DNA of 61,723 nucleotides, filler included, from Jimgerdemannia flammicorona (taxonomy: Eukaryota): the NCBI GenBank assembly GCA_003990765.1. It is 3 parts of 3 records of this genome, joined end to end, with 100 filler letters (N's around TTAATTAATTAA, not from the genome) between each part and the next. Parts side by side here need not be neighbours in the genome. Positions count along the whole stretch, not along the records: positions 20,613 to 41,118 come from RBNJ01001667.1; 2 more parts are not named here. One strand, written 5' to 3'. Positions within the stretch are counted from its first letter, which is position 1, and every line of letters starts with the position of its first letter. Position numbers and translations under genes: made by a program. The notes below the pieces were generated by a model, which was not told the origin of the DNA, ran no database searches, and saw only the letters and a program-made list of their open reading frames with translations. Of this stretch, positions 1 through 51,476 are shown one piece after another.

Positions 1-3000
1 AAAAAAAAGAAGAGAGAGGCTGGGCTGGCAGTTGCTGCTGGTGAGAGGACTGCTTTTTATTGGATGGAGCATTATGGGTTGCAGCTCTGGCAGAAGGCCT
101 GCCTAGAATATCATGAGAAATTTGAGGAGAAGGAGAATGGAGAGCTCTCTGAACTCCTGGTTGGACTGGAGGCTAAGAGGATTGAAGAGGAGGCAGAAGC
201 TGTAGAATATGATCTGGATCTAGCTCAGGAAGAGATGAATATAGAGTAGTAGAGGATATGCTTACTATTATACATTATTTCTTATAAACAATAAAACCAA
301 TATTCTCTCTTTAAATGTGAATAGGCTCTGGAGTTCATTTCATTAATAGAATATTTTTACTTGGCTGAAGGAATTGGAGGCTGATTTTTTTCTTTTGCAG
401 GATGTCAGGTGTGAGAATGATTTGGATAAACTGGAATGAACAAAGAAATGGAGAGGAGAGGCAGTTTGGAAGGGCCTGGTCAGGAAGAGCAGAGGGTAGA
501 TATAGGATATACAGAACTGAAGAGACAGGCTGGTCTGGGGTAAGTGGATTTGCACTGGTCAGGAACTGGTTACAGTTGGATCCTGCTACTGTTCTGTAGT
601 GAGGAGTAAGTATATAGAGTGAGTGAAGGGTCTCTAGGAGGAAGAGACTCTGGCAGAGGCTGGGGTGGACATGCTTGGCAGAGACTTTAATATAGTTAGA
701 GATACACTATTGGATAGAACTGATATAGAGTAGGGGGTAGAGGGAAGGAGTGAAGGTTTGGAGGTATAGAAGGAAGTAGAGAGGCTGAGTACTTTGGTGG
801 ATGCTGGCAGAGAGCTATTGAGTGACCAAAGGGTATATACACATTGAGTAAGTGGCCTGGGGATGAGGATTGACTGGATTTTGATAGCAGACTGCTGGGG
901 TTTGGATACTTGGGGGTCTTTGAAGGCAGAATAGTGTCTATGGTCTGATTATTGAGGACTACTGGAATAGGAACATTTTGGGGAGAGTGGGGATGGACCA
1001 GGACATTGGTGTCTCAACTCCTCTCTGGTAGACAACAAGGTACTATAAGATAAATAAGCTGAGGATATTCAGTAGAGGGTGGAGGGGTGGATAAGGGAAG
1101 GTGCCTCAGTTGACATTAGATAGGTAAGGCTGAAGGAGGAAGCTAGGGTCTATTAGAGGGAGGCAGGTGCAGCAGCTGGGAAACAGAGAAGGAAGAAGAG
1201 GCTATGGGCCTCTGCTAGATTGATAAGGCTATTGGAAGATTGGGCAGGTATAGTGGCCCTAGAGGGGGTAGAGGATTGGAGATTGCTATAGGTGAGAAAG
1301 GAAGTTGTGGAGTTGTAACAGGTATTGTGAGAGGAAGAGAAAGTACAAGTATAGAGTATGGCAGCATGTCTCTATTAGCAGGAGCTGGAGGAAGGAGAGA
1401 GGCCATCTAAGTTTCTCATGAGGGCTCTTTGAGCAAGGAGAGTTCAGCAGAGGTAGGAGGGGGTTCTCAATTCTGAGAGAATACTGGTGCATAGTATACA
1501 AGACATTCTCAGATCACTGAAGGAGCAGTGGAGTGGCTTATGGAGTGAGAAGGAGGGTGGGAAAGAAGATACCTCTATTGGTATTGCCTTGGAGGATTGG
1601 CACCCACTACAGGTAGAAGGGTTGGGCAATCTGGTGATATCAGTGTAGGAGGAGGAGATTTATTAGATTCTTGCTACAACTATGTTGGATATAGCACCAG
1701 GTGAGGATGGCCTGCTCTGGGCTTTCTGGAAGAAGGTGGTAGATGTCCCTAGTGTGCTGGGAGAGCTGAGGGTACTCTGTGACTTGGTACTACAGTCTGG
1801 GAGATAGGTAGGGGAGCAGGATCTAGAGCAGGTGACACTGCTGTATAAGAACAAGAGTAGGAGGGAGGACTGGAGGAACTGGAGGCCAATCATACTACTG
1901 GATATGGACAGGAAGTTGATTACTAAGGTGGTAGTAGCAAGGCTACAGAAAGTGGTCCAGCAGGTCTTGGGGGTAGAGCAGTGGGGATTTGTTGAAAGCT
2001 GACTCATTTGGGATAGCACAGCTTAGATACATGGTATTATTGAAGAGGCACAGGCCTGTGGATTGGATGGGCACCTGGTCTTCTTGGATCAGGAGAAGGT
2101 ATATGACTATGTTCAGAGGGTCTAGTTGGCAAAGATACTAGACAGGATTGGAGTCCCTCATCAGTTCAAAGTAGCAATGATCAGCCTACTGGAAGGGAGC
2201 AGGGCTGTACTCATATATAATGAGCATTGAGGAGTGACTTTCTTTCTGAGTAGGGGTGTTCCTCAGGGGGACCCACTGTCTCCAATTTTGTATGCACTCT
2301 CCTTGGAGCCCCTAATGGATAGAATTCAGCAGAAGATAGAAGAGCTCTCAGTTTATAGCATTGAGTGGAAAGTTGGTGCTTTTGCAGATGATATGATAGT
2401 TGGTCTGGGTTAAATTACCAATGTTAAGAAACTCAAGGAGACTGTAGAGTGGTATGAGATATACTTAGGGATAAACTCAATTAGTTTAAGTGTGAAACAA
2501 TGGTACTAGATAATAGCCTGGTAGGGGGGGAGGTCATTGGAACAATTGTCCCTGCTGGAGAGGCAGTAAGGTACTTGGGTATCTATCTGTCAGTATACAG
2601 GTCCATTCTTCCAAAACTCTGGTGGGAGCAGTGGGTAGTTATCTGGGGAGAGACCCTGCAAAGCTGGAGAGGCCACCACTTGTCTCTGGCAGGGTATGTT
2701 TCTATCTTAAATACTTACTGGCTGCCAAAGTTGTGATATCTGATATATCATCTAGACTTCTTGGTTTAGGTGGTAAAGAGACTACTAAAACTGACAAAGA
2801 GGTAGATCTGAGCAGAGAGGAGGAGTCAGATTAGCTGGGAAATTTTGTCCCTATCAGTAAATAGAGGGGGACTTGGGCTGGTTGACTTTCTGAAGAGGTT
2901 ATACTGCCTGAGAGTATGGTGGCTGAAGAGAGCTATTGAGCTGGGGGGAGGCAGCTGGATTCCTCTATTGAAGAAGGTCTGAGAGATGAGGTCCTATCTA

Positions 3001-26331: not shown

Positions 26332-29300
26332 CATCCCTTTCACCAGTAACATTCAGGTGACACAAGACTCAGACAATACTTTTTACAATGTTTTTAGTAT
26401 CTGACGACTAACAACATGGACAGCAATGATTGAGCTGGTGAGTGTACTGGCCAGGGGGGTAATGGTGCCTTTGGCTGACAGCAGGTGGAGAGGAGGGGAG
26501 ATGGTTTGGAGATACCAGGGGCCTCAATGGCTAGCTGAGGCCCTGGTGGCAGAGGGAGGGGCAGTCTGAGGCAGAGAGGAGGGGAGAGGTCAACCTTTGC
26601 TGACAAGGTCAGAATGGAGAAGATGGCTTCTGGGCTAGATAGTTGGCTGGGCCTGGGGAAGGTATCGATGGCTATTGCTGGGAGTCTGGGAGGTGCACCC
26701 AGGGGTACTTCTGATGATAGGGAAGGGGCCGGGGTAGGGGCTGGAGATGTGACTGTTGATGGGGCTGTGACTGGGGATCTGGCAAAAAATCCAGATGTGA
26801 CGGCAGTTAGCAATTTGGGACTTGGAGTGGGCATGAGGCCCGGGGACCTGGCTGATGGGGTGACAGGCATGGTGTCAGCCCCATTACTCAAGAAGTCGAG
26901 GTCAGAATTCATGGTCATGATGTGCTTCTGGGGCTTGGCAGTAACGGTAAGGATGATTTTGGGGCTGGTGGCACAGGAGGCTAAGGGAGCAGCGTTGGTG
27001 AAGTTCTTGAGGGGAAAGAAAGGAGTTGAGGTGGGGTTTAAGGAGGAAGACACCTTGTTGGCAGCCATGGAGAAGGGGGTGATGGTTGGCAGAGTTGTGG
27101 TCCCTATGGCCCAGTGCATACACTGGGACCCCCGAGTGGTGCAGTTGACAGTGTTGGACCTCCCGACTGTGTCAAAGGAAAGGACCAGGGAGTTAGTTGT
27201 GGAGGCAGTCAAGGAGTATGGTGAGATTGTAGATATTGGGTTCAAAGTCTAGGAGGGTATGGAGCTTAGGACTAGAGATGTCAATGTCAGGGTGAGGTTG
27301 GCTGGGAAGGAGAATACAGGGAAGTCGAGGGACTGGCTGGCGGCACTGAGGTGGAGACCAGTGGAGTGTAAAGTCACCAGGGTAAAGGGGACTCCGGAGG
27401 AGGAGGAGGACCTGTTGGAGGCTCTGGAGGACCTGGAAGAGGCAGTGGCGAGGAGGAGATTGGCCTGGAAGGAGTTTGAAGCCAGGACGGTGGTGGGGGA
27501 GGTAGATGGGAAGAGGACCCAGATGGAGAAGGGGGCCTGGGAAAAGATGCAGGGGAGGAGGATCCAGAAAGAGCTGTTGGCGAAGTTGGGTGGGGGTGGG
27601 GCTGGTGGAAGCTCAGGGGAGGGAGTTGCAGGATCGCGGGAGAGTGCCTGGGCTGAGGGGGGAGAGATGGCCCAGGGCAGAGATCAGATGGGAGGTGGGG
27701 AGGAGAGGGAGGGCAATTTGGAGGTGGATGCCAAAATGGGTGAGGGTGTGCACCCTCAGTATAGTGTTCCAGATGGGGCAGAGGGAGAGGAGGAGCTGAT
27801 AGATATGCTGGATGAGGAGTGGGATGAGTCAGTGAGAAGGAGTGCGCTGGTGGACCCCGAGGTAGATAGAGGACAAATCGCTCAGGGGGTGGCAGAGGCA
27901 GTGGATGAGGAGAAGTGGATATGGAAGACCTTAGAAGGGGTAGCAGCTGAAGAGCTGGGGGGTGAGGACTTCAGGGTGTTGGAGGAGAAGCATTGGGAGG
28001 AGATCCTACAGGGGGAGGAGGTGCCAAGGAAGATGAGAAATGAGATCCTGGTGGTCCTCTTGGAGTTGGTTGAGTATCAGGTTGATGATCAGTGGGAGGA
28101 GGAACTTAGGAGGATTGTGAGTGACAGAGCGACTTTCTTATAGAATTCAAGGAAGGGACTGGAGAAGTGGTGTGCTGTCTGCTTGGACTATAGGGCTGAT
28201 ATGGAGGAAGTGGACAGAGTGGAATGTCAGGAAATCTTGGGAGCACTGGATGCTCAGGATAATGCAGAGGTTGAATTAGAAGCTGAGCGGTACTTGGATC
28301 TGGCAGAGGATGAGATGAGCATAGAACTATAGGTTGGGGCCTCTATTGCAACATTTCTTCAATATGAATAGTACAATTAGGATTTTCTCATTGAACATTA
28401 ATGGGCTATAGGAGTCGGCTAGGAGGAAGTATATATTTGGTTGGCTTAAGAGACTGGATGTGGACCTCTTCTTACTGCAGGATGTTTGTTATGAGGCAGA
28501 TGTGGACTTGCAGGATTGGACTAAGGAATGGGGGGGCGCAGCAGTTTGGAGGGGGAAAGTGTGTATTCTTGTTCGGAAAGGGATGGGGGACATTGGGAAC
28601 ATTGGACATTGGGGGTCTCAGGTAGTGTGAGGAGTGTGGAAGAGGCCTGGATGGGGCTTACTGATGGTCAGGTTCTGTTACTGTCCAGCTGAGAGAGGGG
28701 AGAGGGTGGAATAGATCTGCAGATTGAAAGAGGCTGATGTGTTGGGAGAAGTTGGGTTAGACTGCATGGGGGGTGACTTCAACATGGTACAGGATAAGGA
28801 GCTGGACAGAACTGATGGAGGGAGAGGTGTGCGGAGTGAAAGTGGTAGATTGGGTGACTGGTTAGAGATGGAGAGATTGTGTTCTCTAGTTGACTCAGGA
28901 AGGTATTTTTGGGCGGATCAGAGGATATACACCCACTGGGTGGTGGGACTGGGCTCCAGGATTGACTGGGTTCTAATGGCAGAGTGTTGGGGAACAGATG
29001 TCTGGTCAGCACTGGAAGTCGTATGATATCCATGGTCTGATCACTGGGGGCTGCTTAGAGGGGAGAGGTTTGGGGAAAATGAGAATGAGCCTGGATATTG
29101 GCGACTGAATTCTTCCCTGTTGGAGGATAGGGTGTTGTGGGAGGGATGGGAATCAGAGGTGGTTGGAAATATAGGCAGGTGGTGGAAACAAGGACTGGAG
29201 ATTGGGGACTGCTGGAGAAGGCTGAAGGCGAAGGCTCAGGAGTATTGGAGGGAAGTAGGGAAAGGGAAGTGTGCCCAGCAAAGGCGGTGGGTGCTGTGGG

Positions 29301-31917
29301 CCTCATGGCATCTGACAGCACTCATGGAGAGATGGGCAGGTGTGCTGGAGGATGGGGCCATGACTGATTGGCATATTGCGAGGATTCAGCAGAAGGTGGA
29401 GGAGCTCAAAGGGGTACTATGCAGGGAGGAGGAGGAGCAGTTGCAGGGAATGGTGGCCCACCTGCGGTGGCAGGGGCTTGAGGAGGGGGAGAGGCCTACC
29501 AGATTCTTGTCACAGTTGTTACAAGCACAATGAATGAGGCAGTGGTGGGAGGGAGTTTTGGATGAGAATGGCGAGCTGGTGGTAGAGACTCTGGTGATTC
29601 TGAACTTACTGCGAACCTGGTGGGAGAATCTTTGGAGTGAGGAGGATGGGGGATTGGATGCCCTGAACATTGAAAGACAGCTGGGGGATTGGCACCCAGA
29701 CCCTGTGATGGGACTTGGGACATTGGGGGACCCAGTGAGTCTCTTTGCTCTTTAAGGACAAGAGTAGGCGAGAGGACTGGAAGAACTGGTGGCCAATTAT
29801 GCTTCTCGACATGGACTGCAAATTGGTAATGAAAATCTTGGTGATGAGATTGCAAGGCATCACTCAGCAAGTTCTTAGTGTAGAGCAACGTGGGTTTGTC
29901 GGGGGTTGGTTGATTCGAGATGGGACAGCCTGGGTTCATAGAGTGATTGAAGGTGCCCGGATGACAGGGGTGGATGGCAGATTGGTGTTTCTGGACCAAG
30001 AGAAGGCTTATGATAGAGTGCAGAGAATATGGCTGGAGGGAGTGCTGAAGCAGATTGGCATCCCGCCAGAGGTCTGAAGATCATTAATCAGCCTCTTGGA
30101 GGATAGTCAGGCAGCATTGGTCATCAATGGTCACTGGGGGGTGACCTTTTCCCTGGGATGTGGGGTACCACAAGGGGACCCCTTGTCACCTATATTGTAT
30201 GCTCTTTCTCTGGAGCCACTACTGGACAGGATTTGGTATAAGATTGGAGGCTTGGACATTTTAGGGGTGAACTGGAAGGTGGGGGCCTTTGCTGATGATA
30301 TGGTGGTCGGGCTGGGCTCCTTGGGAGATGTGGGAGAGTTACCGAGGACTGTGGAATGGTATGAGCAGGGTTCTGGTGCTAAACTGAACTGGCACAAATG
30401 TGAGATGCTGGTGCTGGGTGCTGGAATTATTGGTGGTGATGTTATTGGGATGGTGGTGCTGGCAGGTGAACCAGTGTACTACTTGGAGATCTACTTCTTG
30501 GTGTTTAGATCTCTTCTTCCCTAGGCATGGTGGGACCATAAACTTCTAGAGTAGAGTAATGTCTTGCTGAGATGGGGAGGCCGGCATATGTCCCTTGCTG
30601 GAAGGGTGATGGTGTTGAATGTGTACTGGATGCCAAAGCTGTAGTATGTTGAATATCATTTGGATTTCCTGCCCTGGGTGGTTAAGGAGCTATTGAAGAT
30701 GGTGAGGTCATGGATCTGGAGAGGGCGGCGAAGCCAGGTTGGTTGGGAGGTGCTCACACTGCCCTTGGAAAGAGGTGGGCTGGGCCTGGTAGACTTTACT
30801 AAGTGGCTTCTATACATATCTGAGAGCCTGGTAGCTATGAAGGGTGAGCGAGCTCAGGAGGTGGGAGTGGGTACCACTCATGCAGAGATTGTGGGAGGTT
30901 CGGTACTCCCCATATGGTGGCTCCGGGGATCTGCTTGCGATGGTGGCCATGGAAGGGAGCAGGAAGATACAGTTTACAGGCTTTTGGTAGGGGGTGGTGG
31001 ATGGTGCTAAGAAGATTGGACTTCAGTGGCAAGGTGATGAAGCCAAGGAGGTTTGGGGACCATGGATGTGGCAGTGGGACAGGCTTCTATTGAGTGGGGT
31101 CCTGGTGGAGGACTTTCAGCTTGGCGAGGGCCTGGAGTGTCTGTGAGGCCTAGGGGGGGACCTGTGGCCAGAAGCCTGGCAGAGGGTTGGAATTGGGGAG
31201 GAGTAGGATTGAAATGGACTCTGGCTTTGGAGCAAATGGGTGCAGCAGTGGCTGCCCCCCAAGTTCTGGGTGGTGTGGTGGTGGGTCCTGCAGTGGAATG
31301 TGATATTGAACTATCAGTCTGAACACTTGGTGGATGGTGGGGTATTCAAGTGCAAGGATTGTTTCAATGTTGGCCAGGAGGGAGGAGTGATACAAATGCC
31401 TGAACATTGGCTTGGTGAATGCGAGGTTTTGGGGGAGTTTTGGAGAGGTATTATGGACAGGGTAGGGCTGAGTACCAGGGAGGGAGAAGAAGGGGAGAGA
31501 TGGGGAGAGCTCCGCCGGCGACTGGTGGGTGGAGTTGGAGACGAATGGCTGACCCTTAGTTGGGCTTTGGCTATGTGGGTTGGACTGGCTGGGCATTTGG
31601 TTTATGTATTTGAGGAAGGGCATTAGGTTGGGGTTAGTGACAAGATGGCCTGGTGGGAATGGTTGATGTTGGATATTTTGAATAGCTGGTGGCGGGGTTG
31701 GGGGATGGGTGGGGGGTACCGCAGGGATCTGGTGCAGTGTATTGCCCAGAAGAGTGGTGGGAGGGTTTGGGTAGTGGGTAATTGAGTGGTGCTCAGGCAG
31801 GGAGAGGATGAGGGGGGGGGTTTGGGCCCCCGGGGCATTGGTTGAGGATAGGGGTGACATTGTATTGTTTACATTATAGACTTTGGTAATAAAGGGCAGT
31901 CCAAGAGACTATAAAAG
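26332..31917 (+). mobile_element. Full-length decayed L1/Tx1-like LINE copy B
   Basis: 17-bp TSD AGAAACACTAATCTCAA at 26315-26331 and 31918-31934; ORF1 about 26416-28331; ORF2 from about 28363 with GGDFN, RIDWVL, SDH, DQEKAYDRV, PQGDPLSP, FADD; short A tail. Confidence 0.95.
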
Positions 31918-36020: not shown

Positions 36021-36173
36021 TGTATGCACGTGACCTTAAGCCATATGTATACGTCATCAGAGAACGTCTTCAGGGATACGTCACCAATCAGTGCTATCGG
36101 TTCACACTTACACATTATCAATAAAATATAAAATGCGACCTCTTTCACCGAATTCGTATAAACTACTTGCTTA

Positions 36174-38409
36174 ATGGTCGCCAAACACTGTACAAGCCGC
36201 ACCCTCGAAGCGTCACTAACCATGGAGTTCAAGTTTCGTTGGTGGTTCGCCCGAATCTATCCTCACATTATTGCTCTCAGTCTCCTCCATGCTGCTGTCC
36301 CCCTGCTCTCCAATTCCATTCCTGCATGGATTGCTTACTTGCCTTCGAGGCTGGCCCTCTTCTCTTTGCTGCTGAGAGCCATTTCGTTTGGCTTCTACCT
36401 CCTCGACAACGACTCCACCGCTTCACATCACAGGAGAAACATTGGCATCGCCACCTTTTTTTCGACCTATATCGCATTGGTCCTTCAGCTCCGGCATCCC
36501 CTCGTGGCTGCCGGCGTCCGCCGCCATGGCCGAATATCTATGAGACGCTTACTCCGGACGATTCTCTTTCTCGATGTATACATATATGGGTCCCAAAAAG
36601 ACCAAGAAAAGGTGGTGGAATGGTTGCGCGGGGTTCACAGGCGCGTCGAAGGGACCGTTCTCCGATCCGAACTTGTCAAAGACGATCAAGACGCGGCCGC
36701 AAATGCGGGAGACCTCGACCTTATCGGCGCGAAATATGGCTTCACGGAGGACCTACAAATTTGGGTGTTGGCCACCACAGGTACGTGGACCGTGCTACAA
36801 TGATTTCTCCTTTCTCAAATGGCACCTAATCTTAATTCTTTCGCTCTTATAGCCTATAGCTATGTCTGGTACCACCAATACCTCGGTCGTCCGCTTTCCG
36901 AACACCGTCGAAACGAGTATTGCTCCATGCTTATGATGATCGCCCACCGTTTAGGGGTTCCCGCCGAACGCCTCCCGCTGTCTTACGAAGCCATGGAGGA
37001 ACTGATTCACCAAAATATCGCGCGATATCCTTGTACGGCTGGCTTATCTGAGATGCTTGCGGGTATCGAGGTCAATATACCCCCCCTAATTTCCATGGTC
37101 TTCAAACATAGTTTCCTGTTCAGCCAGATACATGACGTTACCGTCTCTCAGTCCTCTGGCTTTGTTGGGCGGGCGTGGTTCCATCTCCTTGTCGCAGCTT
37201 ACCAGTTTATTTACGACATTGCACCTATGATCAGCGTCTCCGGCATTATTCTCCTCATGACCTTCCTTGAGCCAAAACTACAAGCAACACTGGACCAAAC
37301 TTTCTGCGAGATTGGTGCGTCTCCTGATGACCCTCGCCCAATTGAGGCACTTACGAACGAAGCGGGGGATTACACGAAGGTTCTGCAATGGTTCCTCGCC
37401 CGGGGTCGCCTCAGCGACCTCGATTATTGGGTCCTTAAGCGCGTCAACCGTGTCGACCTCGAAGCGCCCTTAGCCATCACGATACAGTTCTGGGCTGCTA
37501 TTATCCGAGGCTATTACAGGGTAACCAGCGATGCAGTTTCGGGTGCATTTGCGGACGCCCGTCTGCGTCTCGCCGAGCGCCGCCTGGCGAATATCCCAGC
37601 AGATACCCTTCCCGTTCATATGGGTATCGTCATGGACGGAAATCGACGGTGGGCTCGCGTCCGCGGCATGGAAATAATTCACGGCCATGTAAAAGGTGCG
37701 TGGAAGTTATTGGAAGTCTTGGGATGGTGGATGGAACATCATCGAGGCAATTTAAAGTATATGACATTCTGGACATTTTCGACGGACAACTTTAACCGCC
37801 CCGAATCTGAGGTAAGGCCTGGATATTCTTGCTCGACTATGATTTGGAGACGTTGTGTCTGGCGTGAAATTAATCAATTTTTCCTTGTTTCTCACCCTTG
37901 TGCAGGTCAACGGGCTTATGAGACTGTTGGCGAGCGAGCTCGGAGGTCTCTTGTACAATTCGTATATACATTTTTTTAAGATACGCGTTGTGGTGATCGG
38001 GGACCGCTCGCGCCTGGCCCAATCTCTCGTTGACATCATAGAGGAGGTCGAATGTGCCACGGCCAAATACGACAGCTTTTTTTGGCAGATCGCTGTGGCC
38101 TACGGTGGCCAGGATGAGATTGTCACGTCGGTCAACGCTACCCTCAAAGCAAACCATTCCTCGGCCACTCTGGCGATGCTCAGCGCCAATGAAATCTCGC
38201 GGTATACGTACAACGGTCGATTGGGATACCCAAGAGTCAATATCATCCTGCGCACAGGTGGAGACCATCGCACATCGGGGTTTCTGCTCTGGGATTCGCA
38301 GTATGCCGAGCTCAAATTTTCAAGCAAGCTGTGGCCCGAGTTTGAAGAGTCGGACTTCGTCGCCGCGCTGGTGGATTATAGCAAAAGGGATATTCGGCTT
38401 GGGAAATGA
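36174..38409 (+). CDS. MpaB/Lcp-like (DUF2236) oxygenase domain fused to a cis-prenyltransferase; exons 36174-36780, 36853-37811, 37906-38409 (689 aa; alternative ATG at 36222)
   Basis: N-domain ALVLQLRHPLVAAGV..H..RRLLRT...VHRRVEG...LQIWVLATT...RLGVP..LP; C-domain HMGIVMDGNRRWAR, FSTDNFNRP, AYGGQDEI, ILRTGGDHRTSGFLLW, LWPEF, terminal RLGK; GT-AG introns 36781-36852 and 37812-37905 keep the frame; normal CpG content, no stops. Confidence 0.92.
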
Positions 38410-39551
38410 CAAATAGTAGTGAGAAATCTGATGATTGTAGGAAAAATCATGTCATAATTAATATAAAGACAATATAAATTATCTGGCATATCATAGATAT
38501 TTAAGAATCATAGAATTAGTATTCTCTTTGTTACCAGTCAAGTGTTCTAAGAGGAAAAATTCTGTGCGGTTTGGTCATTCGAAATCTGTTTCATAGAGAA
38601 AAATATATATATTAATTCATATTGTCGTTGCTCGATGAATTAGAACCGGTGGAAGTTCATTCGGACAGGTTCGATGAGAGGATTGCAGCAAGCCAAGGTT
38701 CGAAAGGACCACCCAACTGGTATATTATTTGTTCAATGATTTCGCTCGCAGTGTATGCCCAAGAGTAAAATTTCAGATGACAGGAGTAGCCATCATAGGA
38801 TGTATATTATTATGAGCTACGAAGCATGCAACTATATTTTACATCAATACATAGGATGGCAACTATAGTGAGCTGGTATCGGTTGGAACCCCATGAAATT
38901 GTCAAAGCGCAAAAAGATTCAAGATGATTGCGATTGTGAACAGAAGTGATCGGGTGTATAACCAGGTTCACCCAATAAACACGCGATGAACATTCATCTT
39001 GTTTTTGAGCCCTCAAAGCAGGGGGCTAGGTTCAAATTCAATTCGTGTGAGCGGAAATATACAATCGTGTTCCTGTTATTATTATTATAATATATTATTA
39101 TATATTATTATATTATTATTATTATTATTTCACAATGACAATCATTTCAATATTATAACGACACACGGCTCAAAGTGCATGTTATACAGATTGTTAGATG
39201 TTCTGGCGGTGTCGCTTCAAAGACAACTTGTTCTTGTTCTCGTCTGGTAGTTTGGCTGAATACGTCTTACAAGGTTGGCGGGTTCCCACGTACAATGTCT
39301 CTTCGAAGACAAGGGAGTTCCAGCGTACGACAGGCAGAAATCAGAATACACTTGCAATCCAATCCGGCGCAGTCTAGTGCTTTAACAAGTTACCAAGGTG
39401 GGCAGAGGCAGAGGCAAAAGCAGAGGAATTCGATATTGCACTTTTCAGGCTTTCGAGGGAAATACTTTATTCGAATTCAAACTACTGGAATATTTACACA
39501 AGCTATCCTATGCTAAGTGGCCAAAACTGAATGGCGTGGTAATGCGGTGGG

Positions 39552-41218: not shown

Positions 41219-44200
41219 AAAAAAAAAAAAAAAAAGAGAATACTGGTGCTGGCATTATCTAGTATAACAAAGAACTTAGAGCAGAAAGTTCAGGATTATG
41301 AGGGCTTCATCATCATCATCACTGAAGGAGATGAGATCTACGAATTCATCATTTTCGCATACTTCAATGTCATGTGGGATGATGTCATCGATGACATCAT
41401 CACATTCAGCTATGGCAGGGAAATCGAGGACAAGGTCTGGAGCTCTCCAGTCTATGAAGTTCTCTTCTACAAAATAAGGAACAAATGTGGGGTCTTGGGG
41501 AGATCTAATTTAGATGCTTGGGCCTTGGAATACTGAGATCAATCCTTGCAGGAATTGATCTGGGTTGTCCTAGAGGATAGGGTGCCAGAAGTCTTCTACT
41601 TCTTCGCTGTTGAGGGTGATAGTGGACTGGGCTTCTGTAGCTACCCTGGCTTCTAGTGTATTGATATGGCAGGATGATAGATCTCTGAAATCTGAGACTC
41701 TAACATACTCCAAGTTGGAGATCAACCATAGTGCATGCCTGAAGATCTGATGAATCTTCTTAGCTATCCTTGTTTCGCGTATATCCATAGGAGTGGTATC
41801 TTGTAGCTCTTGGGTACTGGCCTGTGGGAACTCCCAGTAGAGGAGGTTTCCTATTTTGTACTCCTGCCACATTTGGAGGCATTTGGTAGCAATGGTGATC
41901 CTTGTTTCTATTTCGCAGTAGTAGAGGATAAAGTAATAAGAGTCTGCAGTACCCAGGTTGACACTAAGAGTCCTTCTTGAGTGGGTCCTCATGGCTCTTC
42001 TGATGTCTTGGAACATCCTTTCCTTGACCGAGATACCTTGATGATTCCTTGACCTTGAGGTTTGGCAAGCAGCAGGCATTTTGTTTGTAGTAAGTCTTTG
42101 AGCTATTTTGGGATTGGTGGTTCTTATTGGTTGCTGCTACTGCGGTTCCTTGATCCTTCTTTTATATTCTTCAGGATGCTTATGCTGTAGTCATAATGAC
42201 TCACAGTTGGTCATCATTGCTCATCTCATATACTGTATGATCTTCTTGTGCTCCAATCTGGTGGCTTATAAGGAAAGGCTGTCTCCTGTGCTGATGTCTT
42301 CATTCTGGGGTCACTGCTATATCTTCCTCCTGAATAAGGATCTTCCTGAGCATCCTTATTCATTGGTCTAGTTCTGAAAAATTTGCTGATCCCATAACCT
42401 CTGGCAAGGGGTCAAAAACTGGTGTTTATGGGCTGGCGTCTTCCCTTTGTATTTTGGCATGATGGTGAAGGGTCACTCCCTTCATATAGAGCAAGGGCCT
42501 GATTCTGATCTTGACCAATCAGTTGACAGTTTGAACTCCTCTGACTGCGAAAGTCTCACGGATGAGTAGTTGCCAGTGCCATATCCCTTAGAGAATGGTC
42601 CAAACAGATAGCCTGCTGGTCATGAGACATACTGTTATGATTCATGGACTAGAATCTCACAGGCAGTCATCACATTTTGCTTCTCTTATATAGGTTCATG
42701 ATACTTCTTGAGTCTGTTCCTATATACCGTGGTAGGTAGTATGGTCCCTGAGATTTTTCTAAGCCAGAAGATAGTTCCCTTAATATCTTGTATATAGAAG
42801 GGTCCTTCCCATTTGGGCTCCAGTTTTCATGACCATGAGGCTTCTACTATATTTTGATACAGTAGAATCTTTTCTCCAATTCGGATGGGTTCTAGGGCCT
42901 TGTGATTCTTTTCTGCATTCTTTCTTATCAGTGCTTGTAACTTGGTGATGTAATCTCCAGCCTTCTTCCTGATTTGGTGTAGTCTCCGGATTTCTGCATC
43001 AATCTATCTCCAAGTTAGGTCTAGATTTGTAGCTGAGGTTCCATTAGAATCTTCTTCTCCAAAGAGCAGCTCTCTTAGGGTAAAATGTGTACTTTGTGAC
43101 CATATGTCTTGTAGAACAGAGAGGGCAGTTGGGAGATAGTTATCCCAATTCTTGTATATCTCTGAGATCTTTGCTAGGATGTTCTTGAGGGTCTTATTGG
43201 TTCTCTCTATCTGTCCATTTCCTTGAGGGTGGTATGCAGTAGTCTTGATGTGCTGGATCTTGTATTTCTGGTACATTATCTTGTAGAATTCATTGATAAA
43301 TTCTGTACTGTGGTCTATTGTAATTTGCTTTGGTATCTTGTAGTGGCAGATGATTTCTCGGTGTAGGAAATCAGCTATAGAGAGGACATTGGCTTCTTGT
43401 AATGTTCCTGCCTCTATCCATTTGGTAAAGAGGTCTATAATAACTATAATATAGTGGTTTTCTGATAGTGTTACTGGTAGTGATCCAATGATATCCATTG
43501 TAATGTGGTGGAAGGGGATAGGCTCAATTCTTGATGATCCGGGTGCCTGGTCTTGCTGATCTTGTTTCTGTTTTTGGCACTTATCACACTCTTTGACAAA
43601 TTGGCGCAGGTCTTCTTCCATCTTGGGCCACCACATGGTTCTTCTTGCCTTGTTGTATATGTTGATTCCTCCTAAGTGTCCTTGCTCATATACTTCCTTC
43701 ATTACTTGATACTTCTTGTGTTCAGATATTACTAGCTTTCCTCCTTTTCTGAGTGTAGTGTTGTCTAATTCAAACTATTTCCAAGTCCGGTTGATGATAG
43801 TGATTGTCCAGGGTTCAAGGTAGTTGGGCATCTTCTGCTGTCCAAGATAGCTGATTAATCCATAGTATAGCTCCTTATTCATATTGAATAGTCTTGATGG
43901 GGATGTTTTGGGGTGTCCTTGAGAGTGCATTGACATTGATGTTGGTCTTTCCTGGGTGGTGCTTGACAGTACAGTCATACTCTTGCAGCCTGTAGATCCA
44001 TCTGGCATATATTCCTTTGGGGTTTAGAGTGTAGAATAGCCAGACAAAAGTGAAATGGTCTGTTTGAATGGTGAAGTGTTTTCTGGCTAGGTAGTAGTGG
44101 AACTTGTCTACTGCCCAAACTACTGCTAAGTATTTAAGCTTGCATGACTTGTAGTTCTGTTCCACTCCATAGATATCTCGGCTTGTATAGGAGATGACAT

Positions 44201-45394
44201 ATTCATGTCCATCTTTCTTCTGAGCTAGAACTGCTCCAAGTCCTATAATACTCGCGTCTGTCTACAGGATGAATTCTAGGTTCCAGTCTGGTCTTCTGAG
44301 GATGGGTGCTTGGGTCAACCTGGTCTTGAGTTCATTGAAGGTTTCTTAGCACTCCTTGATTCATTCAAATTTGGTCTCCTTCTTCAGTAGCTCATAGATA
44401 GGTGCTGCAATGTTGGAGTATCCTTTGATAAATCTTCTGTAGTAGCTGGCCAGTCCAAGGAAGGCATGGACTTCTGTGGTTGTTCTGGATCTTAGGTAGG
44501 CTGCAACAGCCTTGATCTTCATAGGGTCTGTGTGGATTCCAGTCTGATTGATGAGGTGTCCTAGGTAGATGATTTCTTGAGCTGCAAACTTACATTTCTT
44601 GGGCTTAATATAGAGGCTATGCTCCTTGAGCCTCTTGAGAGCTAGCTGTATGTGATTGATATGTTTCCATATAGTGTTGCTGAAGATGATCACATTATCA
44701 ACATAGACAAAGAGCTATTTTTCAATCTCATTGCTGAAGACTCTGTTCATCATTCACTGGAAACTTGCTGGGGCATTGCACATTCCAAATGGCATTCACA
44801 GATAGATATAGGTGGTATCAGGTGTGATGAAGGCTGATTTCTCACTGGCATCTCGAGTGAGACTGATCTGATAGAAGCCTGAGAACAGATCCAAGGTGGT
44901 GTAGTATTTGGCTTCACTTCCAAGAGTGGTAAGGATTTCTTGAATATTCAGCAAGGGCTGCCTATCCTTCTTGGTGATGGCATTGAGTTTCCTATAGTCA
45001 ATGCAGAGTCTTGGTGCAAACTCTCCAGGCTTGCTTCCTTTCTTTGAGGCAAGGACAATGGGTGAGGCCCAGGGGCTGATAGCTTGCTTGATGATTCCAG
45101 CTTCTTCCATTTTCTTGAGTTCGGCTCACAGCCACTCTCTATAGGCAGGTGGTATGGGTCTGGCTTTCTGGTAGATAGGCTTGGTATCACCAGTGTCAAC
45201 TTCATGGTGGTACTTGGGTTCTTGATTGTGGATATCTCTAAAGTCTGTAGCAAGTACTCCTTCATTCTGGTACAGAATCTTGAGAAGTTGTTCCTCCAGA
45301 GGAAAGTTTTCTTCAATGGTATATATGTGCTTGTTCTGGTCCTTGTCTTTCTTGTGCTCAAGTTCAGTAATCTTGGTGGCAGCATAGACTCCTC

Positions 45395-45810
45395 TTCCAG
45401 TAGATCCAAAGTCTTGTTCTCCTCTCTTGGTCTTGATAAGTTCAGTGGTCTCTATGATCTTGGGCTTCTTGATTTCGTGGATCAGCATCTGGCCAATCCT
45501 GTCATGCTTCTTGGCTTCGAAGGGAGTGGTGTGGTTGTGATTTCTGACTATGAGAAAAATCTCACCAGTGTAATCAGGGTCAATTACTCCTCCTTTAACT
45601 GAGATTTCACTTTTGGCCAGACTGCTCCTGGTCTTGATAATTCTGGCATGGTTTTCTGGCAACTTGACTCCAATTCCAGTGCCAAGTAGGGTAGTGGTCT
45701 GTGGTTCAAGGGTAGCATCTTGGATGCTGGCAAGGTCTATTCCTATGGCTCCTTCAGTCTTGTATTCTGGGATCTTGGCTTCAGGGTGAAACTTCTTGAC
45801 CTTGAGGGTG
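45395..45810 (-). pseudogene. dUTPase domain within Gypsy pol
   Basis: GAIGIDL, RSSLA, GGVIDPDYTGE, DRIGQM, RGEQDFGSTG motifs in ORF 45126-45986. Confidence 0.93.
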
Positions 45811-46055
45811 ATGTCTGATTCTTGTTCCTCCTCATCGTCACTGTCAGCTTGAAGCTCTGGGGGCTGGTCATCTTCTTCAGCTTTCCTTTTTGCTTTGGCA
45901 GCTTCTTGCTCATGTTTCTGTTGGTGGATTTTCCTGACTTCACTGATACAGGACCAGCAGTCATTCAGGTGTTCAGAGCAGTACATTCTAGTACCATGGG
46001 GGCATCTTCCTTGAGGGGCATACCCATCGATGATTTTGTTATACCACTGCTCATC

Positions 46056-47827
46056 ACTATCTTGCCCATCTTGCTCATCTTGCCCATGTTGCCCGTGTTG
46101 CCCATCTTGCCCATCTTGCCTGTTTTGCCTGTTTTGCCCATCTTGCCCATGTCGCCCGTCTTGCTGTCTTGCCTGTCTTGCCTGTCTTGCCTGTGTTACC
46201 TATCTTGCCCATCTTGCCCATCTTGCTTGTCTTGCATTTTGCCCGTTTTGCCCGTTTTGCCCGTCTTGCCCGTGTTACCCATCTTGCCTGTCTTGTCTGT
46301 TTTGCCTGTTTTGCCCATTTTGCCCGTCTTGCCCATGTCGCCCGTCTTGCCTGTTTTGCTTGTTTTGCCCATCTTGCCCATGTCACCCGTCTTGCCATCC
46401 GTCTTGCCTGTCTTGCCCATATTACCCATCTTGCCCATCTGCCTGTCTTGCCCATGTCGTTTTGCTCATTTTGCCCATTTTGCCCGTCTTGCCCATGTCG
46501 CCCGTCTTGCCTGTTTTGCCTGTTTTGCCCGTCTTGCCCATGTCGCCCATCTTACCCGTTTTGCCCATTTTGCTCATCTTGCCCATGTTACCCGTCTTGC
46601 CATCCGTCTTGCCCGTCTTGCCCATATTACCCGTCTTGCCCATCTGCCCATCTTGCCTGTGTTGTTTTGCCCATTTTGCCCATTTTGCCCATCTTGCCCA
46701 TGTTGCCCGTCTTGCCTGTTTTGCCTGTTTTGCCCGTCTTGCCTATGTCACCCGTCTTGCTGCCCGTCTTGCCCGTCTTGCCCGTGTTACCGTCTTGCCT
46801 ATGTCGTTTTGCCCATTTTGCTCGTCTTGCCCGTCTTGCCCATCTTGCCCGTCTTGCCTGTATCGTTTTGCCCGTTTTGCCCGTCTTGCCCATCTTGCCC
46901 ATCTTGCCCATGTCATTTTGCCTGTTTTGCCCATCTTGCCCATCTTGCCCGTATCATTTTGCCCGTTTTGCCCGTTTTGCCCATCTTGCCCATCTTGCCC
47001 GTCTTGCCCATCTTGCCCATCTTGTCTGTATCATTTTGCCCGTTTTTCCCATCTTGCCCATGTCGCCCGTCTTGCCATCTTGCTGTCTTGCCGTCTTGCC
47101 CATCTTGCCCGTCTTGCCATCTTGCCTGTCTTGCCTGTCTTGCCCATCTTGCCCATCTTGCCCATGTCGTTTTACCCGTTTTGCCCGTTTTGCCCATCTT
47201 GCCCATGTTACCTGTCTTGCCCGTTTTGCCCATTTTGCCCGTCTTGCCCACATCGCCCGTCTTGCCACCCGTCTTGCCCGTCTTGCCCATGTTGTTTTGC
47301 CCATTTTGCCCATCTTGCCCGTCTTGCCCGTCTTGCCCGTCTCGCCCGTCTTACCCGTCTCGCCCGTCTTACCCGTCTTGCCCATCTTGCCTACGTCATT
47401 TTGCCCATTTTGCCCATTTTGCCCGTCTTGCCCATCTTGCCTGTCTAGCCCATCTTGCCCGTCTTGCCCATCTTGCCCATATCATTTTGCCCATTTTTCC
47501 CGTCTTGCCCATGTCACATGTCTTGCCATCTTGCTGTCTTGCCGTCTTGCCCATCTTGCCCGTCTTGCCCATCTTGCCCACCCGTGTTGCCCGTGTTGCC
47601 TGTCTTGCCCTTCTTGCCCCGAAATTCTTGAAATCCTTGTAACTTGCTGAAACTAGAAGCTATGGCTATGCCGAAAAGACCAGGTGGGACTCCTATACCT
47701 AAGGGATGAGGTACACCTGTCAGCACTCCTTGGAGCCTATGCTTGTGGCCTCCAAAACTTGAGATGCTCACCCTCCTAGTGGCTTAGACGGAGCCAACTG
47801 TTTGGTCCGAGTGAAAGGAGCCGGTCA
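46056..47827. mobile_element. Insertion into Gypsy pol: about 200-bp unique head plus about 1.55-kb 9-mer array, 16-bp TSD
   Basis: TATACCACTGCTCATC (46040-46055) and TATATCACTGCTCATC (47828-47843) flank it; removal restores the pol frame KLTDEQWYNKIIDGYAPQ. Confidence 0.85.
46060..47620. repeat. 9-bp minisatellite TTGCCCGTC / TTGCCCATC / TTGCCTGTC / TTGCCCGTT
   Basis: Directly visible tandem array with occasional indels. Confidence 0.97.
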
Positions 47828-50800
47828 TATATCACTGCTCATCTGTGAGCTTGGGTGTCTTGTTCTTGTTCTTGTTCTTATTCACCGAGTGTATGAAGAC
47901 CTCTGTGTCTTCTTCATCTCCTTCCTCCATGTCTAGCAGGACTCCTTTGTGGACATTGATAGAAACTCATACCTTTCTTCCTCTGTAGTTGATCTGCATC
48001 TTCTGGGCATTGAGGTCAATGATGGCCTTGGCCTTGTGAAGCCATTGGTTGCTAATGAGAATGTCATAGTTGGTGGTACTTGTAACAATCACGTCTACTG
48101 GGATGATAGCTCCTCCTATCTTGATGGGGACTTCTCGGATTTTGCCAAGGGGGGTAGCTCATATACTGTCTGCTGTGACATAGACTATCTTGGTGGACTC
48201 TTCAATGTCCCAACCTAGGTGGTCAATTACCTTCTTGCTCATGAGGCATCCTCTGGAACCAGTATCAATGATGGCATCAAAGATACAGTCTTCGATCTGG
48301 CAGGAGATATAGGCTGATGTCTTATACTGGTCTTTGGATTCTTCACCTGAGTTCTCAGATTCTTCTTGTGCATTGTGAGCTTCTACAATCTTGTACTCTT
48401 AATTCTTGACAGTAGTTGCAAGTCCTACTCTCAACTGCTGTCTGAAGGCAGGGACTTCAGCTAGCTGCCCAAAAGTGGCATTGACCTTCAGTTCCTTGAG
48501 GTCCTTATAGATGTCATACTGGTGGATCTTGGTCTTGTGCAGCTTCTGTTCCTTCTTGCTCTCGCTTTCTCCTGAGACTGGAGTAGTGCCTTCGATAATT
48601 TGGCAAGTAGCTTTGTCTAACTCCATGTCTTGATCAATCTCCTTATGTTGGGTCTTACTTTGAATAGTGATAGCTGGAGTCTTTTTTGGTCTTCCAACTG
48701 GCTTGCTGTTACTCTTCTTGCCATAGGGCTTGGACCAGGTTCTAGTACCTTCAGTAGTAGAGTAGAATTCGAGCTCCTCATAGTATTCTTCATCATCAGT
48801 GTCACCAATCTCCTCGATGACTACTGCATTAGTTTGTTCTCTGGTTCTGCTAGCATTGCTTGGTTGGGCTTTGCATCTTGTTTCAGTCATACAGCTCTTT
48901 ACATAGTGGCCTTCTTCTCTACATCTAAAGCATATGATATTGCATTCTTTTGTAGTAGCTGCAAATCTCTGCACTGGTTTCCTGTTGGCACTTCGGACTT
49001 CTCTAACAACATCACCAAGATGTGCAGTCATCTCAGCGAACTACTTGGCAAGTTCTTCCACTGGGTCAGCTTTGGCTGTCTTGGGGGTAGGTGGGGTTGG
49101 TTGTCTGTTTACAACTGTGGCAGGTAAGATACTAGTTAGCTTTGATGGCTCTATCTTGATACCAGTTATTTTCTCCATTGAGTGTTCGGCAGAGTGTCTG
49201 GCAGTCTAATATCTCTGTACAAAGACCACTTTCTGATCAAGGGTCAGTACAGCTGGGGTAGACCAGATTGCTAGGGCAATTTCAGAGTGAACTCCTTTGA
49301 GGAAGGTTGAGTCTGCTATTTGTTCCTTGAGGGCATCATCATAGCTAGCCAAGACAATCTGGTAGCAGATTCAGGTATAGAATGAGTTGAGATCTTCACT
49401 AAGTCCCTGGCAGATAGTATTGAGTTGATCCTTGAGAGCTTGCTTGATCTCTTCAGTATAATATGTTGTTCTGAGGAAGGTCTTCATGTTGGCAAGTTTG
49501 ACTACATCTATACCAGCAATGGTGGCTGCATTAAACTTGTTTCTGGCAGGTCCTCTGAGGCTGACTGGTAGAAGGGCCAATTGAGCATTCATACCAAGAA
49601 CTTGTATGACAGCGAATTGTTCAAAGTCTTCAATGAAGGTCAGGATTGACTCTTCAGTAGTATATCCATAGAATGTGGGGGGACATATTTCCATCTTGTC
49701 TTGAATTCTTGCAGGGGTAACTCTTGTAGTCAGGGTAGTTATTGTGGGAGTTGTTCATTTTTCAGCTTGAAAGTGAGGGATTCATCTTGAATCATCAGCC
49801 AATGGGTACCAAGTTGTCACATAGTGGTCACTGAGTCCTTCAAATATACCAGATTCTCTTCAAGGTATATTTCTTAGACTAACTCAAGTTTGTTATAAGC
49901 AAGTTCTTATTGGAGTACCTTCCCAAGGTCTTATAGTCCTCAAACTTCTTATCTTTAACTATCTTGTTATCTCTTAGATTGCTTGCAAGAAAGTGTATAT
50001 ATTGTACTAAATTGACTGACTTTATTTCATAGGAAATAAGAGGGATATTTATACAAAATATAATTCAATGGTTGCTAAGATATAAAGCTAAATATAAATT
50101 CCAATAACTAAAACTACTGAGTTCCAGGGCTGGTATTATTTAGTGTCACATCAAAATACTAGTGCTGGAACAATTTCGTGTCACCTCAGAATGCCAGTGC
50201 TGGCATTATCCAGTATTACATAAGAATACCAGTGCTAGCATTATCTAGTGTAACAAAGAACTTAGAGCAGAAAGTTCAGGATTATGAGGGCTTCATCATC
50301 ATCATCACTGAAGGAGATGAGATCCGTGAATTCGTCATTTTTGCATACTTCGATATCACACAGAATGATGTCATTGATGACATCATCACATTCAGCTGTG
50401 GCAGAGAAATCGGGGACAAGGTCTGGAGCTGAGGTTCTCTTCCACAAAATAAGGAACAAATGTAGGATCTTGGGGAGATCTAACCTGAATACTTGGGCCT
50501 TGGAATACTGAGATCAATTCTTGTAGGAATTGATCTGAGTTGTCCTGGAGGATAGGGTGCTAGAAGTCTTCTACTTCTTCGCTGTTGAGGGTGATAGTGG
50601 ACTGGGCTTCTGTAGCCACTCTGGCTTCTAGTGCATTGATATGGCGGGATGATAGATCTCTGAAATCTGAGACTCTAACATACTCCAAGTTGGAGATCGA
50701 CCATGGTGCATGCCTGAAGATCTGATGAATCTTCTTAGCTGTTCTTGTTTTGTATATATCCATGGGAGTGGCATCTTGTAGCTCTTGGGTGCTGGCCTGT

Positions 50801-50915
50801 GGGAACTCCTGGCAGAGGAGGTTTCCTATTTCATACTCCTGCCACATTTGGAGGCATTCAGTAGCAATGGTAATCCTTGTTTCCATTTTGTGGCAGTAGA
50901 GGATAAAGTAATAAG

Positions 50916-51476
50916 TAGTGCTCCTAACGAGTCAATTTAATCTGGATTAGATTCGGATTGATTCGGATTGAATCCCATCCGGATGGATTTGAATCGGATT
51001 CGAATCAACCATTGTTTTGATTTCCAAATTAGACAATTAAATGTTTACATCAATAATTTGATGAATAATCATCCACATTTGATGATCTTGGTGTCATTTG
51101 AAAGCCCTTAATAAAGCCTATCTAATGATACCAAGAACATTGAAATCGGATCATGCGTTGCTGAGTTATGAAGGAAAACGTCTGAATTGCCGATTTTGGA
51201 AATTCTTTGATTTGCCGATTTTGGAAATTTCGTCAAATGGAACGTTTTCCTTAATATCTCGGCAACACGTAATCCAATTTTAATTTTCTTGGTATCATTA
51301 GAAAGGCCTTATTAAGGGCTTTCAAATGACACCAAGATCATCAAATTTGGATGATTATTCATCAAGTTATTGATGTAAACATTTAATTGTCTAATTTGGA
51401 AATCAAAACAATGGTTGATTCGAATCCGATTCGAATCCATCCGAATCCCATCCGGATTGACTCGTTTGGAGCACTA
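50916..51476. mobile_element. Young foldback hAT-type MITE inserted in the Gypsy 5' LTR
   Basis: TAGTGCTCCTAACGAGTCAAT / ATTGACTCGTTTGGAGCACTA ends; arms of about 250 bp inverted; TSD GTAATAAG/GTATAAG; absent from the other LTR copies; CpGs retained. Confidence 0.93.

Follow-up and report, generated by a model that had tools for sequence, protein, structure and literature searches.

A spliced and expressed gene of Jimgerdemannia flammicorona encodes a predicted MpaB/Lcp-type oxygenase domain fused to a cis-prenyltransferase domain

A 61,723-nucleotide (nt) stretch of the genome of Jimgerdemannia flammicorona (NCBI GenBank assembly GCA_003990765.1), hereafter the window, contains a gene at positions 36174..38409 (+ strand) that joins an MpaB/Lcp-type oxygenase domain to a cis-prenyltransferase domain. 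The window is composed of three parts from three records, joined with 100 filler letters between them and not necessarily neighbours in the genome; the gene lies in the part taken from RBNJ01001667.1 (positions 20,613 to 41,118). As far as the assembled contigs show, the gene is expressed as one mRNA across both domains, and one cDNA encodes both. By sequence comparison, the fusion is a conserved, small eukaryotic family whose cis-prenyltransferase domains form one clade, and it is not unique to Jimgerdemannia. Judging from the domain families, the enzyme may build a cis-polyprenyl chain and then oxidatively cut that same chain, a reading to which we assign a probability of roughly 40%.

The gene has three exons and two introns. 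Exon 1 (36174..36780, +) opens with the start codon and encodes the hydrophobic helices of the N-terminus, followed by the first half of the MpaB/Lcp domain. In exon 2 (36853..37811, +), the oxygenase domain is completed and is followed by the linker and the beginning of the cis-prenyltransferase, the remainder of which is found in exon 3 (37906..38409, +) together with the stop codon TGA (38407-38409). Intron 1 (36781..36852, +; 72 nt, GT..AG) has an in-frame TGA at 36801-36803 and was spliced out in contigs of RNA runs X1, X2 and X4. Intron 2 (37812..37905, +; 94 nt, GT..AG) was spliced out in contigs of runs X1, X2 and X8. The coding sequence (CDS) spliced from the window has 2070 nt, and its product of 689 amino acids (aa) was identical to the public protein P0001, which agrees with the single spliced open reading frame (ORF) of a preliminary description of this DNA. 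The gene model is already public under the NCBI name 'putative undecaprenyl diphosphate synthase-domain-containing protein [Jimgerdemannia flammicoro...', and the NCBI annotation covers the C-terminal, prenyltransferase half only. The ATG at 36174 is the first ATG of the X1 contig. It coincides with the start of an ortholog fragment, P0006, whose end coincides with the end of exon 1. The gene forms a GC-rich island, with a GC content of 0.529 in the CDS (0.606 at third codon positions, GC3) and of 0.233 and 0.377 in the 2-kb flanks.

Eight RNA runs contained part of the gene stretch. Four of them, from four different studies, were aligned (X1, X2, X4, X8; X1 may share its source with the genome), and X3, X5, X6 and X7, which had small shares, were left out. 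The X1 contig (2183 nt) covers 36142-36778, 36851-37809 and 37904-38488 with zero differences, and gives the minimum extent of the spliced mRNA (36142..38488, +). The X2 contig (2264 nt) extends over 36166-38543 and has 12 differences. The reading frame is complete in both contigs, which omit exactly 72 nt and 94 nt at GT..AG, the cut of intron 1 being ambiguous by two nt (36779-36850 or 36781-36852). Identical joints were found, at 95-99% likeness, in declared root metatranscriptomes, at intron 1 in X4 and at intron 2 in X8. Transcripts ending between the domains had been named beforehand as a test of the fusion; the spliced contigs run across both domains instead. An additional internal start is possible, because contigs cannot reveal transcript starts. 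The X2 contig is an allele or represents a second isolate. Eleven of its 12 differences were itemised (36465-38508), eight in the CDS and three in the 3' untranslated region; the CDS variants comprise three synonymous and five non-synonymous ones (codons 98, 166, 289, 362 and 374).

Both domains were recognised by Pfam far above the cut-offs. In the whole protein, PF09995 (MPAB_Lcp_cat; formerly DUF2236) matched aa 97-279 with 96.1 bits (cut-off 23, E 4.2e-27), and PF01255 (Prenyltransf) matched aa 462-688 with 193.7 bits (cut-off 27, E 4e-57), over profile positions 1-219 of 219. The exons were also searched one by one. Exon 1 alone matched PF09995 at profile positions 13-100 (E 1.2e-14), exon 2 alone matched both PF09995 at 104-179 (E 6.2e-06) and PF01255 at 1-58 (E 2e-14), and exon 3 alone matched PF01255 at 59-219 (E 1.9e-35). 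The Pfam profiles are unbroken across both introns, and therefore the splice sites are independently supported. As the single open frame of exon 2 contains part of each domain, the domains are linked by exon 2 itself. The DUF2236-like domain, the complete cis-prenyltransferase and the exon shared by both, all described earlier, were thereby recovered.

The C-terminal cis-prenyltransferase domain (aa 447-689; 37584..38406, +), which is split by intron 2, was identified by PF01255, TIGR00055, PDB and Foldseek matches. The NCBIfam model TIGR00055 (uppS) scored 192.8 bits (cut-off 109.55), and the 15 listed species-level NCBIfam models all stayed under their own cut-offs. The PDB sequence search gave bacterial undecaprenyl diphosphate synthases (UPPS) as best matches (2d2r, E 1.3e-37, 133.3 bits; 6szg, E 8.4e-37), with human DHDDS at 103.5 bits. 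The best Foldseek match was equally a UPPS (6szg_A, E 4.5e-15, TMt 0.90), and seven cis-prenyltransferase entries were found by the fold search VIA-align at Z 24.6-28.7. Identity to the solved UPPS enzymes was 30-35%, at a TMt of ~0.9. The aligned motifs comprise DGNRR, the GH histidine, FSxxNxxRP, RTGGxxRxSxFLLW, YAE and the C-terminal R-L-G.

In the catalytic DGNRR (D464-G-N-R-R468; 37635..37649, +), the D, the G and both R were kept in 13/13 rows of alignment A1 and the N in 12/13. Ten residues match those of solved UPPS enzymes and are conserved in the fused family (D464, R468, H481, S512, N515, R518, R638, R644, S646 and E657). We take these positions to be D26, R30, H43, S71, N74, R77, R194, R200, S202 and E213 of E. 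coli UPPS. Ile477, four residues before the conserved His, is replaced by Arg in H. pylori UPPS and by Lys in A. baumannii UPPS, and it is variable across the fused family; its position is presumably that of E. coli R39, with a role in allylic diphosphate binding. Phe580 aligns with E. coli Leu137, which we assume to be the floor of the product tunnel, and T510 presumably occupies the position of E. coli A69, as mapped by counting along alignments to other UPPS and by the E. coli numbering. A short-chain specificity like that of Z-farnesyl diphosphate (Z-FPP) synthase was considered and dropped, since just two tunnel positions had been read, too few to decide.

In fungi, a heteromeric cis-prenyltransferase is the rule. 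The C-terminal RXG of homomeric cis-prenyltransferases is present here (R686-L-G688; 38395..38403, +) and was kept in 11/11 A1 rows reaching the C-terminus. This motif marks homomeric cis-prenyltransferases, and enzymes without it depend on a partner of the NgBR/Nus1 type, according to the available part of a published account (PMC12998183). The heteromeric DHDDS/Rer2-type class was rejected, as RXG is present and bacterial enzymes score higher (133.3 vs 103.5 bits). Sequence and model both point to a bacterial-type homomeric UPPS-like enzyme, which would be active and would form a dimer.

The N-terminal MpaB/Lcp-type oxygenase domain (aa 83-358; 36420..37319, +), which is split by intron 1, was identified by PF09995 and by structure matches. 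For the latter, the whole protein was modelled with AlphaFold2 from an 11-sequence alignment (mean predicted local distance difference test score, pLDDT, 71.1; predicted template modelling score, pTM, 0.69). Model confidence was good at aa 90-270 and 440-689 and poor at aa 1-20, 74-88 and 359-429. Among 48,161 chains, VIA-align ranked cis-prenyltransferases first, followed by the t-anethole oxygenase 8s1j_B (Z 15.6, root-mean-square deviation (rmsd) 4.2, 253 aligned) and the latex clearing protein (Lcp) 5o1l_A (Z 14.1, rmsd 3.7, 240 aligned; model 83..358 vs Lcp 118..400). Unrelated helical or globin rows reached only Z 7-8. According to the title of its entry, 8S1J is a bacterial aryl-alkene-cleaving enzyme. 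The Atlas's own model of the protein gave structural matches to MpaB-family clusters over aa 80-383/446. No Lcp-family chain was found by the PDB sequence search, either with P0001 (E up to 0.01) or with the alignment A2 profile (E up to 10). The matches listed by Foldseek for the whole model were cis-prenyltransferases only, and the Lcp-family match came from the VIA-align fold search only.

All sequence motifs of the preliminary description were located, among them LQLRHPLVAAGV at aa 104-115. The codons of R125-L-L-R128-T129 (36546..36560, +) encode R-x3-T, in which a basic residue immediately precedes the Thr (cf. Lcp R164, K167 and T168), and H155 (36636..36638, +; cf. Lcp H198) is the candidate proximal haem ligand. 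H155 lies in WLRGVHRRV, 26 residues downstream of T129, where about 30 had been given and where the Lcp spacing is 30. In the predicted model, R125 and T129 belong to helix 123-138, and H155 closes the helix that follows (141-156); the order is that of Lcp, at nearly equal spacing. In the available part of the Lcp literature (PMC5522427), the conserved DUF2236 residues are given as R164, T168 and H198, the last being the proximal haem ligand, and K167 as the distal ligand; R164 and T168 are on helix E and His198 on helix F, and mutation of R164, T168 or H198 leads to loss of activity. For PgMpaB, which cleaves a farnesyl C=C, R125, R152 and H157 are reported as essential in the part of the source available (PMC6900556). 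Across the fused-family rows of A1, Arg125 was found in 9/10 covering rows, Thr129 in 10/10 and His155 in 11/12, and the WL..H motif was invariant or nearly so.

Kyte-Doolittle peaks of at least 1.6 were centred on aa 68-69 and on aa 329-334. The first belongs to an N-terminal pair of hydrophobic helices (aa 21-77; 36234..36404, +), modelled as helices 2-45 and 51-77 with low pLDDT. These helices are a likely membrane anchor, and they fit the nature of MpaB', described as ER-bound (endoplasmic reticulum) and monotopic in the available part of a preprint (bioRxiv 10.1101/524025). The hydrophobic stretch at aa ~320-343 lies within the part superposed on Lcp and therefore probably belongs to the oxygenase fold rather than to the linker. 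Hydrophobic segments had been placed at the N-terminus and in the linker: the former stands, and the latter has to be moved into the oxygenase fold. The real linker (aa 359-446; 37320..37583, +) was modelled at low confidence (pLDDT <50 at aa 359-377, 389-393 and 395-429) and ends in a long helix, 408-448.

Relatives were collected with a HMMER scan of 1.84 billion representatives, which gave 14,687 matches at E up to 0.001. Among the best 150 matches, which were listed, most were single-domain prenyltransferases, and only 14 had more than 200 residues ahead of the prenyltransferase domain. Pfam was run on 24 of the best 150 (long and top-ranked ones; the other 126 were left out), and both PF09995 and PF01255 were found in eight of them (P0002, P0004, P0005, P0007, P0009, P0012, P0017 and P0035). 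Among the 14 with long N-terminal regions, the oxygenase match of P0016 was weak (phmmer E 2.4e-4), P0036 and P0027 matched by alignment only, P0128 had no recognisable N-terminal domain and P0037 was a LytB fusion. The fusion thus occurs in at least eight other 50%-identity clusters. To judge from their sequences, two shorter proteins seem to be fragments of an ortholog in a related species: P0006, which has 203 aa at 57% identity and corresponds to exon 1, and P0003, which has 247 aa at 64% identity. Other cis-prenyltransferase fusions were encountered among P0037, P0048, P0096 and P0074, namely LytB (IspH)-prenyltransferase, acylphosphatase-prenyltransferase and prenyltransferase-UPF0047.

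A quick maximum-likelihood tree was calculated for 149 prenyltransferase domains, leaving out the incomplete P0035. All 11 fused rows and P0003 fell in one clade of 21 rows (Shimodaira-Hasegawa-like approximate likelihood ratio test, SH-aLRT, 98), which is compatible with the fusion having arisen once. The nine other rows of this clade had 219-344 aa; several start at the domain start and look like fragments. One Atlas cluster had 65 members and a 632-aa representative (score 0.93), with PF01255 in 100% and PF09995 in 98%. Its taxonomy was given as 'Eukaryota 97%, commonest Streptophyta', with the phylum known for 63/65; the plant labels may stand for true plant genes or for fungi living in plant samples. 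The clusters and the clade contradict a view of the architecture as a one-off. One protein, P0016, was the exception in both domains, with Arg replaced by Pro and His by Glu in the oxygenase and His481 by Tyr in the prenyltransferase. On its sequence, it may be a doubly degenerate paralogue.

In prokaryotes, the best 80 of 596 confirmed loci (from 600 pattern matches) matched only query residues 387-689, and no fusion was found among them. Within 3 kb around the same 80 loci, 0/2265 ORFs matched a hidden Markov model (HMM) of the N-terminal domain at E up to 1; this HMM did find its positive controls, the stand-alone DUF2236 proteins P0152 and P0153, and the prokaryote sample is limited and no proof of absence. 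Metagenome scans with P0001 and with the P0001+P0006 alignment gave no relative. Word-indexed homologue searches gave either P0001 alone or three proteins, of which two are stand-alone DUF2236 proteins and one is a short prenyltransferase. In the full-text literature, a scope outside which lie subscription journals and supplements, no description of an oxygenase/cis-prenyltransferase fusion was found, consistent with the earlier statement that no characterised enzyme of this architecture was known to its author; Marchantia papers came up through 'MpAB...' gene names only. The available part of a 2026 review of polyisoprenoid biosynthesis does not use the words fused, fusion, bifunctional or oxygenase, and it describes the enzymatic pathways of polyisoprenoid degradation as poorly understood (PMC13586052).

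These data suggest the following mechanism. The N-terminal helices would hold the protein in the ER membrane, and dimerisation would take place via the prenyltransferase domain, as in the homomeric enzymes of this class. The cis-prenyltransferase would condense isopentenyl diphosphate (IPP) onto an allylic diphosphate, giving a Z-polyprenyl diphosphate. The globin-like domain, which presumably binds haem b, would use O2 to cut a C=C of that chain, at the enzyme itself or within the same membrane patch, and would release a methyl ketone and/or an aldehyde, an apo-polyprenoid. By simple chemistry, a farnesylacetone-type ketone would result if the chain were cut at the first cis bond after an E,E-farnesyl primer. 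We propose the product of the prenyltransferase as the substrate of the oxygenase because of the chemical fit and the logic of conserved fusions. The fit arises because the natural substrate of Lcp, poly(cis-1,4-isoprene), is the polymer type that cis-prenyltransferases make; its cleavage leaves -CH2-CO-CH3 and OHC-CH2- ends, as stated in the available part of the source (PMC5522427).

A more far-reaching version of this proposal, which we regard as doubtful, would make the fusion family a dedicated eukaryotic machine, in which a short or medium Z-polyprenyl chain is made and cut at once at a defined cis bond. The resulting diffusible apo-polyprenoid ketones or aldehydes, of farnesylacetone or oxo-polyprenyl type, could be signals or protectants in a root-symbiotic fungus. 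The gene is transcribed in root metatranscriptomes. If this version holds, eukaryotes would have a first route, at the level of an enzyme, to the cleavage or turnover of polyisoprenoids.

Cis-prenyltransferases, which build the cis-polyisoprene of dolichol, undecaprenol and rubber, and Lcp/MpaB oxygenases, known from bacterial rubber degradation and one fungal drug pathway, have each been well studied, but separately. A conserved, expressed fusion points to both activities on one substrate stream. If this holds, the fusion would provide a first handle on how eukaryotes cleave polyprenols, and isoprenoid-derived carbonyl metabolites of a new class would be defined. The protein would also be a self-contained biocatalyst from farnesyl diphosphate (FPP) and IPP to oligo-isoprenoid ketones or aldehydes. 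The gene also reveals what is predicted to be a homomeric bacterial-type cis-prenyltransferase in a fungus.

Several observations weigh against the synthesis and cleavage of one chain by this protein. The PF09995 match spans only profile positions 13-179 of 231 (167 positions), and the N-terminus and linker of the model are of low confidence. R125, T129 and H155 were likened to the Lcp residues by motif, spacing and position on predicted helices, and not by residue-level superposition. P0016 lacks the Arg and the His, and therefore the oxygenase domain can persist without these residues. The X2 variants were not clearly under purifying selection, and all five non-synonymous ones fall in the N-terminal domain or the linker. 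On the prenyltransferase side, the Ile477 site is not conserved in the fused family, and therefore the site for the allylic primer may deviate from the canonical one. In the window, the gene has only retroelement relics for neighbours and so no pathway context, and biochemical data for any member of the fusion family were not found in the full-text literature.

Three other functional explanations were weighed against the coupled reaction. Both domains could be active but uncoupled, with the oxygenase taking another prenylated or isoprenoid substrate, such as a polyprenylated acceptor supplied by another enzyme (as MpaA precedes MpaB), a carotenoid or a quinone side chain. The fusion would then merely co-locate two pathway steps or one membrane site. 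Such a role would suit the nearest solved fold, which is the aryl-alkene oxygenase 8s1j (Z 15.6), and the linker of ~90 residues, modelled at low confidence, so that no fixed channel is evident. It would also suit PgMpaB, which works on a farnesylated aromatic and tolerates various farnesylated substrates, including several O- and C-farnesyl analogues, according to the available part of the source (PMC6900556). However, no prenyl-acceptor transferase or other pathway gene was found nearby by Pfam on the long frames of the window, and the fusion was retained across the whole clade, for which a shared substrate flow is the simplest explanation. We consider this alternative unlikely.

It is quite unlikely that the haem domain is a sensor, through which O2, NO or redox change would tune polyprenyl diphosphate synthesis as in globin-coupled sensors, with their N-terminal globin and C-terminal output. 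The domain order is the same, and the 3/3 globin core of Lcp resembles that of globin-coupled sensors in the available part of its description (PMC5522427). Globins of such sensors (4uiq, 4zva, 1or4) did match the model, but at Z 7.3-7.7, a range common for helical folds, whereas the alkene-cleaving enzymes matched about twice as strongly (Z 14-15.6 vs ~7.5). Moreover, the catalytic Arg and Thr of Lcp are retained, and we know of no sensor member of PF09995.

A third explanation is that the N-terminal domain chiefly anchors a homomeric cis-prenyltransferase to the membrane or serves as its scaffold, in place of targeting by Nus1/NgBR-type partners, with the oxygenase chemistry lost or irrelevant. 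The N-terminal hydrophobic helices, the match to only 167 of 231 PF09995 profile positions and the retention of the domain by P0016 without Arg and His all speak for it. Yet a conserved globin-like fold of ~280 residues is more than a simple anchor needs, and the His (11/12 family rows), the Thr (10/10) and the Arg (9/10) are kept together with a nearly invariant WL..H, which makes a mere anchor very unlikely. Finally, an artefact (chimeric gene model, assembly join or bacterial contamination), to which the isolated GC-rich island and a cis-prenyltransferase closer to bacterial enzymes than to human DHDDS (133 vs 103.5 bits) might point, was refuted by the Pfam matches of exon 2 alone, which spans both domains, and by the spliced contigs from four studies, barring errors in these data; two spliceosomal-type introns with spliced RNA rule out bacterial contamination, and fungal-type retroelements in the flanks and orthologous fragments at 57-64% identity argue in the same direction.

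Elsewhere in the window, Pfam recognised retroelement debris and one low-complexity frame among the other long frames, and nothing else. A long terminal repeat (LTR) retrotransposon was located at 41237-51778 (-), with LTRs at ~41237-42235 and 50223-51778 that are 90-93% identical. Pfam matches on its - strand comprised an integrase (43004-43774), an RNase H (43875-44261), a reverse transcriptase (44361-44714), a dUTPase domain (45126-46199) and a weak zinc-knuckle frame (48399-49040). An array of the 9-nt unit TCTTGCCCG lies inside this element at 46060-47619 (1.56 kb, ~171 copies, 73% matches); several + strand frames are open across it, and it coincides with a strong AT skew. A purine-rich element was present in three diverged copies (62-74% identity) at 1-2800, 26700-30400 and 53000-57700, in which G very strongly exceeds C on the + strand (GC skew +0.4 to +0.5). 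One of the copies retains a reverse-transcriptase fragment (30078-30524). A 400-aa open frame at 7328-8530 (-) gave Cys-rich keratin-B2-like matches just under the Pfam cut-offs; it is probably low-complexity sequence and not a keratin relative.

Among known systems, the N-terminal domain is structurally closest to the t-anethole oxygenase of Stenotrophomonas maltophilia (8S1J), which is unfused and has ~10% identity. Lcp of Streptomyces sp. K30 (5O1L) shares PF09995 and the globin-like fold with extra helices, as well as the Arg-x3-Thr, the basic residue before the Thr (K167; here R128) and a His on the following helix. Identity over the structural alignment is ~11%, and no counterpart of the Lcp base Glu148 was recognised in the fusion. 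Lcp is a secreted, soluble bacterial enzyme acting on external rubber, whereas the domain of the Jimgerdemannia protein is joined to a synthase, resides inside the cell and is probably bound to a membrane. MpaB, MpaB' and PgMpaB of the mycophenolic acid pathway, compared by description, are fungal, ER-bound PF09995 enzymes that cleave a farnesyl C=C, with Arg and His essential, as described in the available parts of two sources (PMC6900556; bioRxiv 10.1101/524025). MpaB is a stand-alone enzyme whose gene belongs to a biosynthetic cluster, and a separate UbiA-type transferase, MpaA, supplies the prenyl chain. In contrast, the Jimgerdemannia fusion is without a gene cluster, and its oxygenase domain shares one polypeptide with a cis-prenyltransferase. 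Bacterial UPPS (2D2R, 6SZG, 1JP3; TIGR00055) share the full-length domain, the catalytic residues and the C-terminal RXG, while the fusion gene differs in being eukaryotic and intron-containing and its product in the 446-residue N-terminal extension, Ile477 and Phe580. The usual cis-polyprenyl (dolichol) source in fungi, DHDDS/Rer2 with NgBR/Nus1, has the same fold (6z1n_A, Z 27.0). DHDDS/Rer2 subunits are without RXG and need a partner, according to the available part of the source (PMC12998183), whereas the fusion protein has an RXG of its own.

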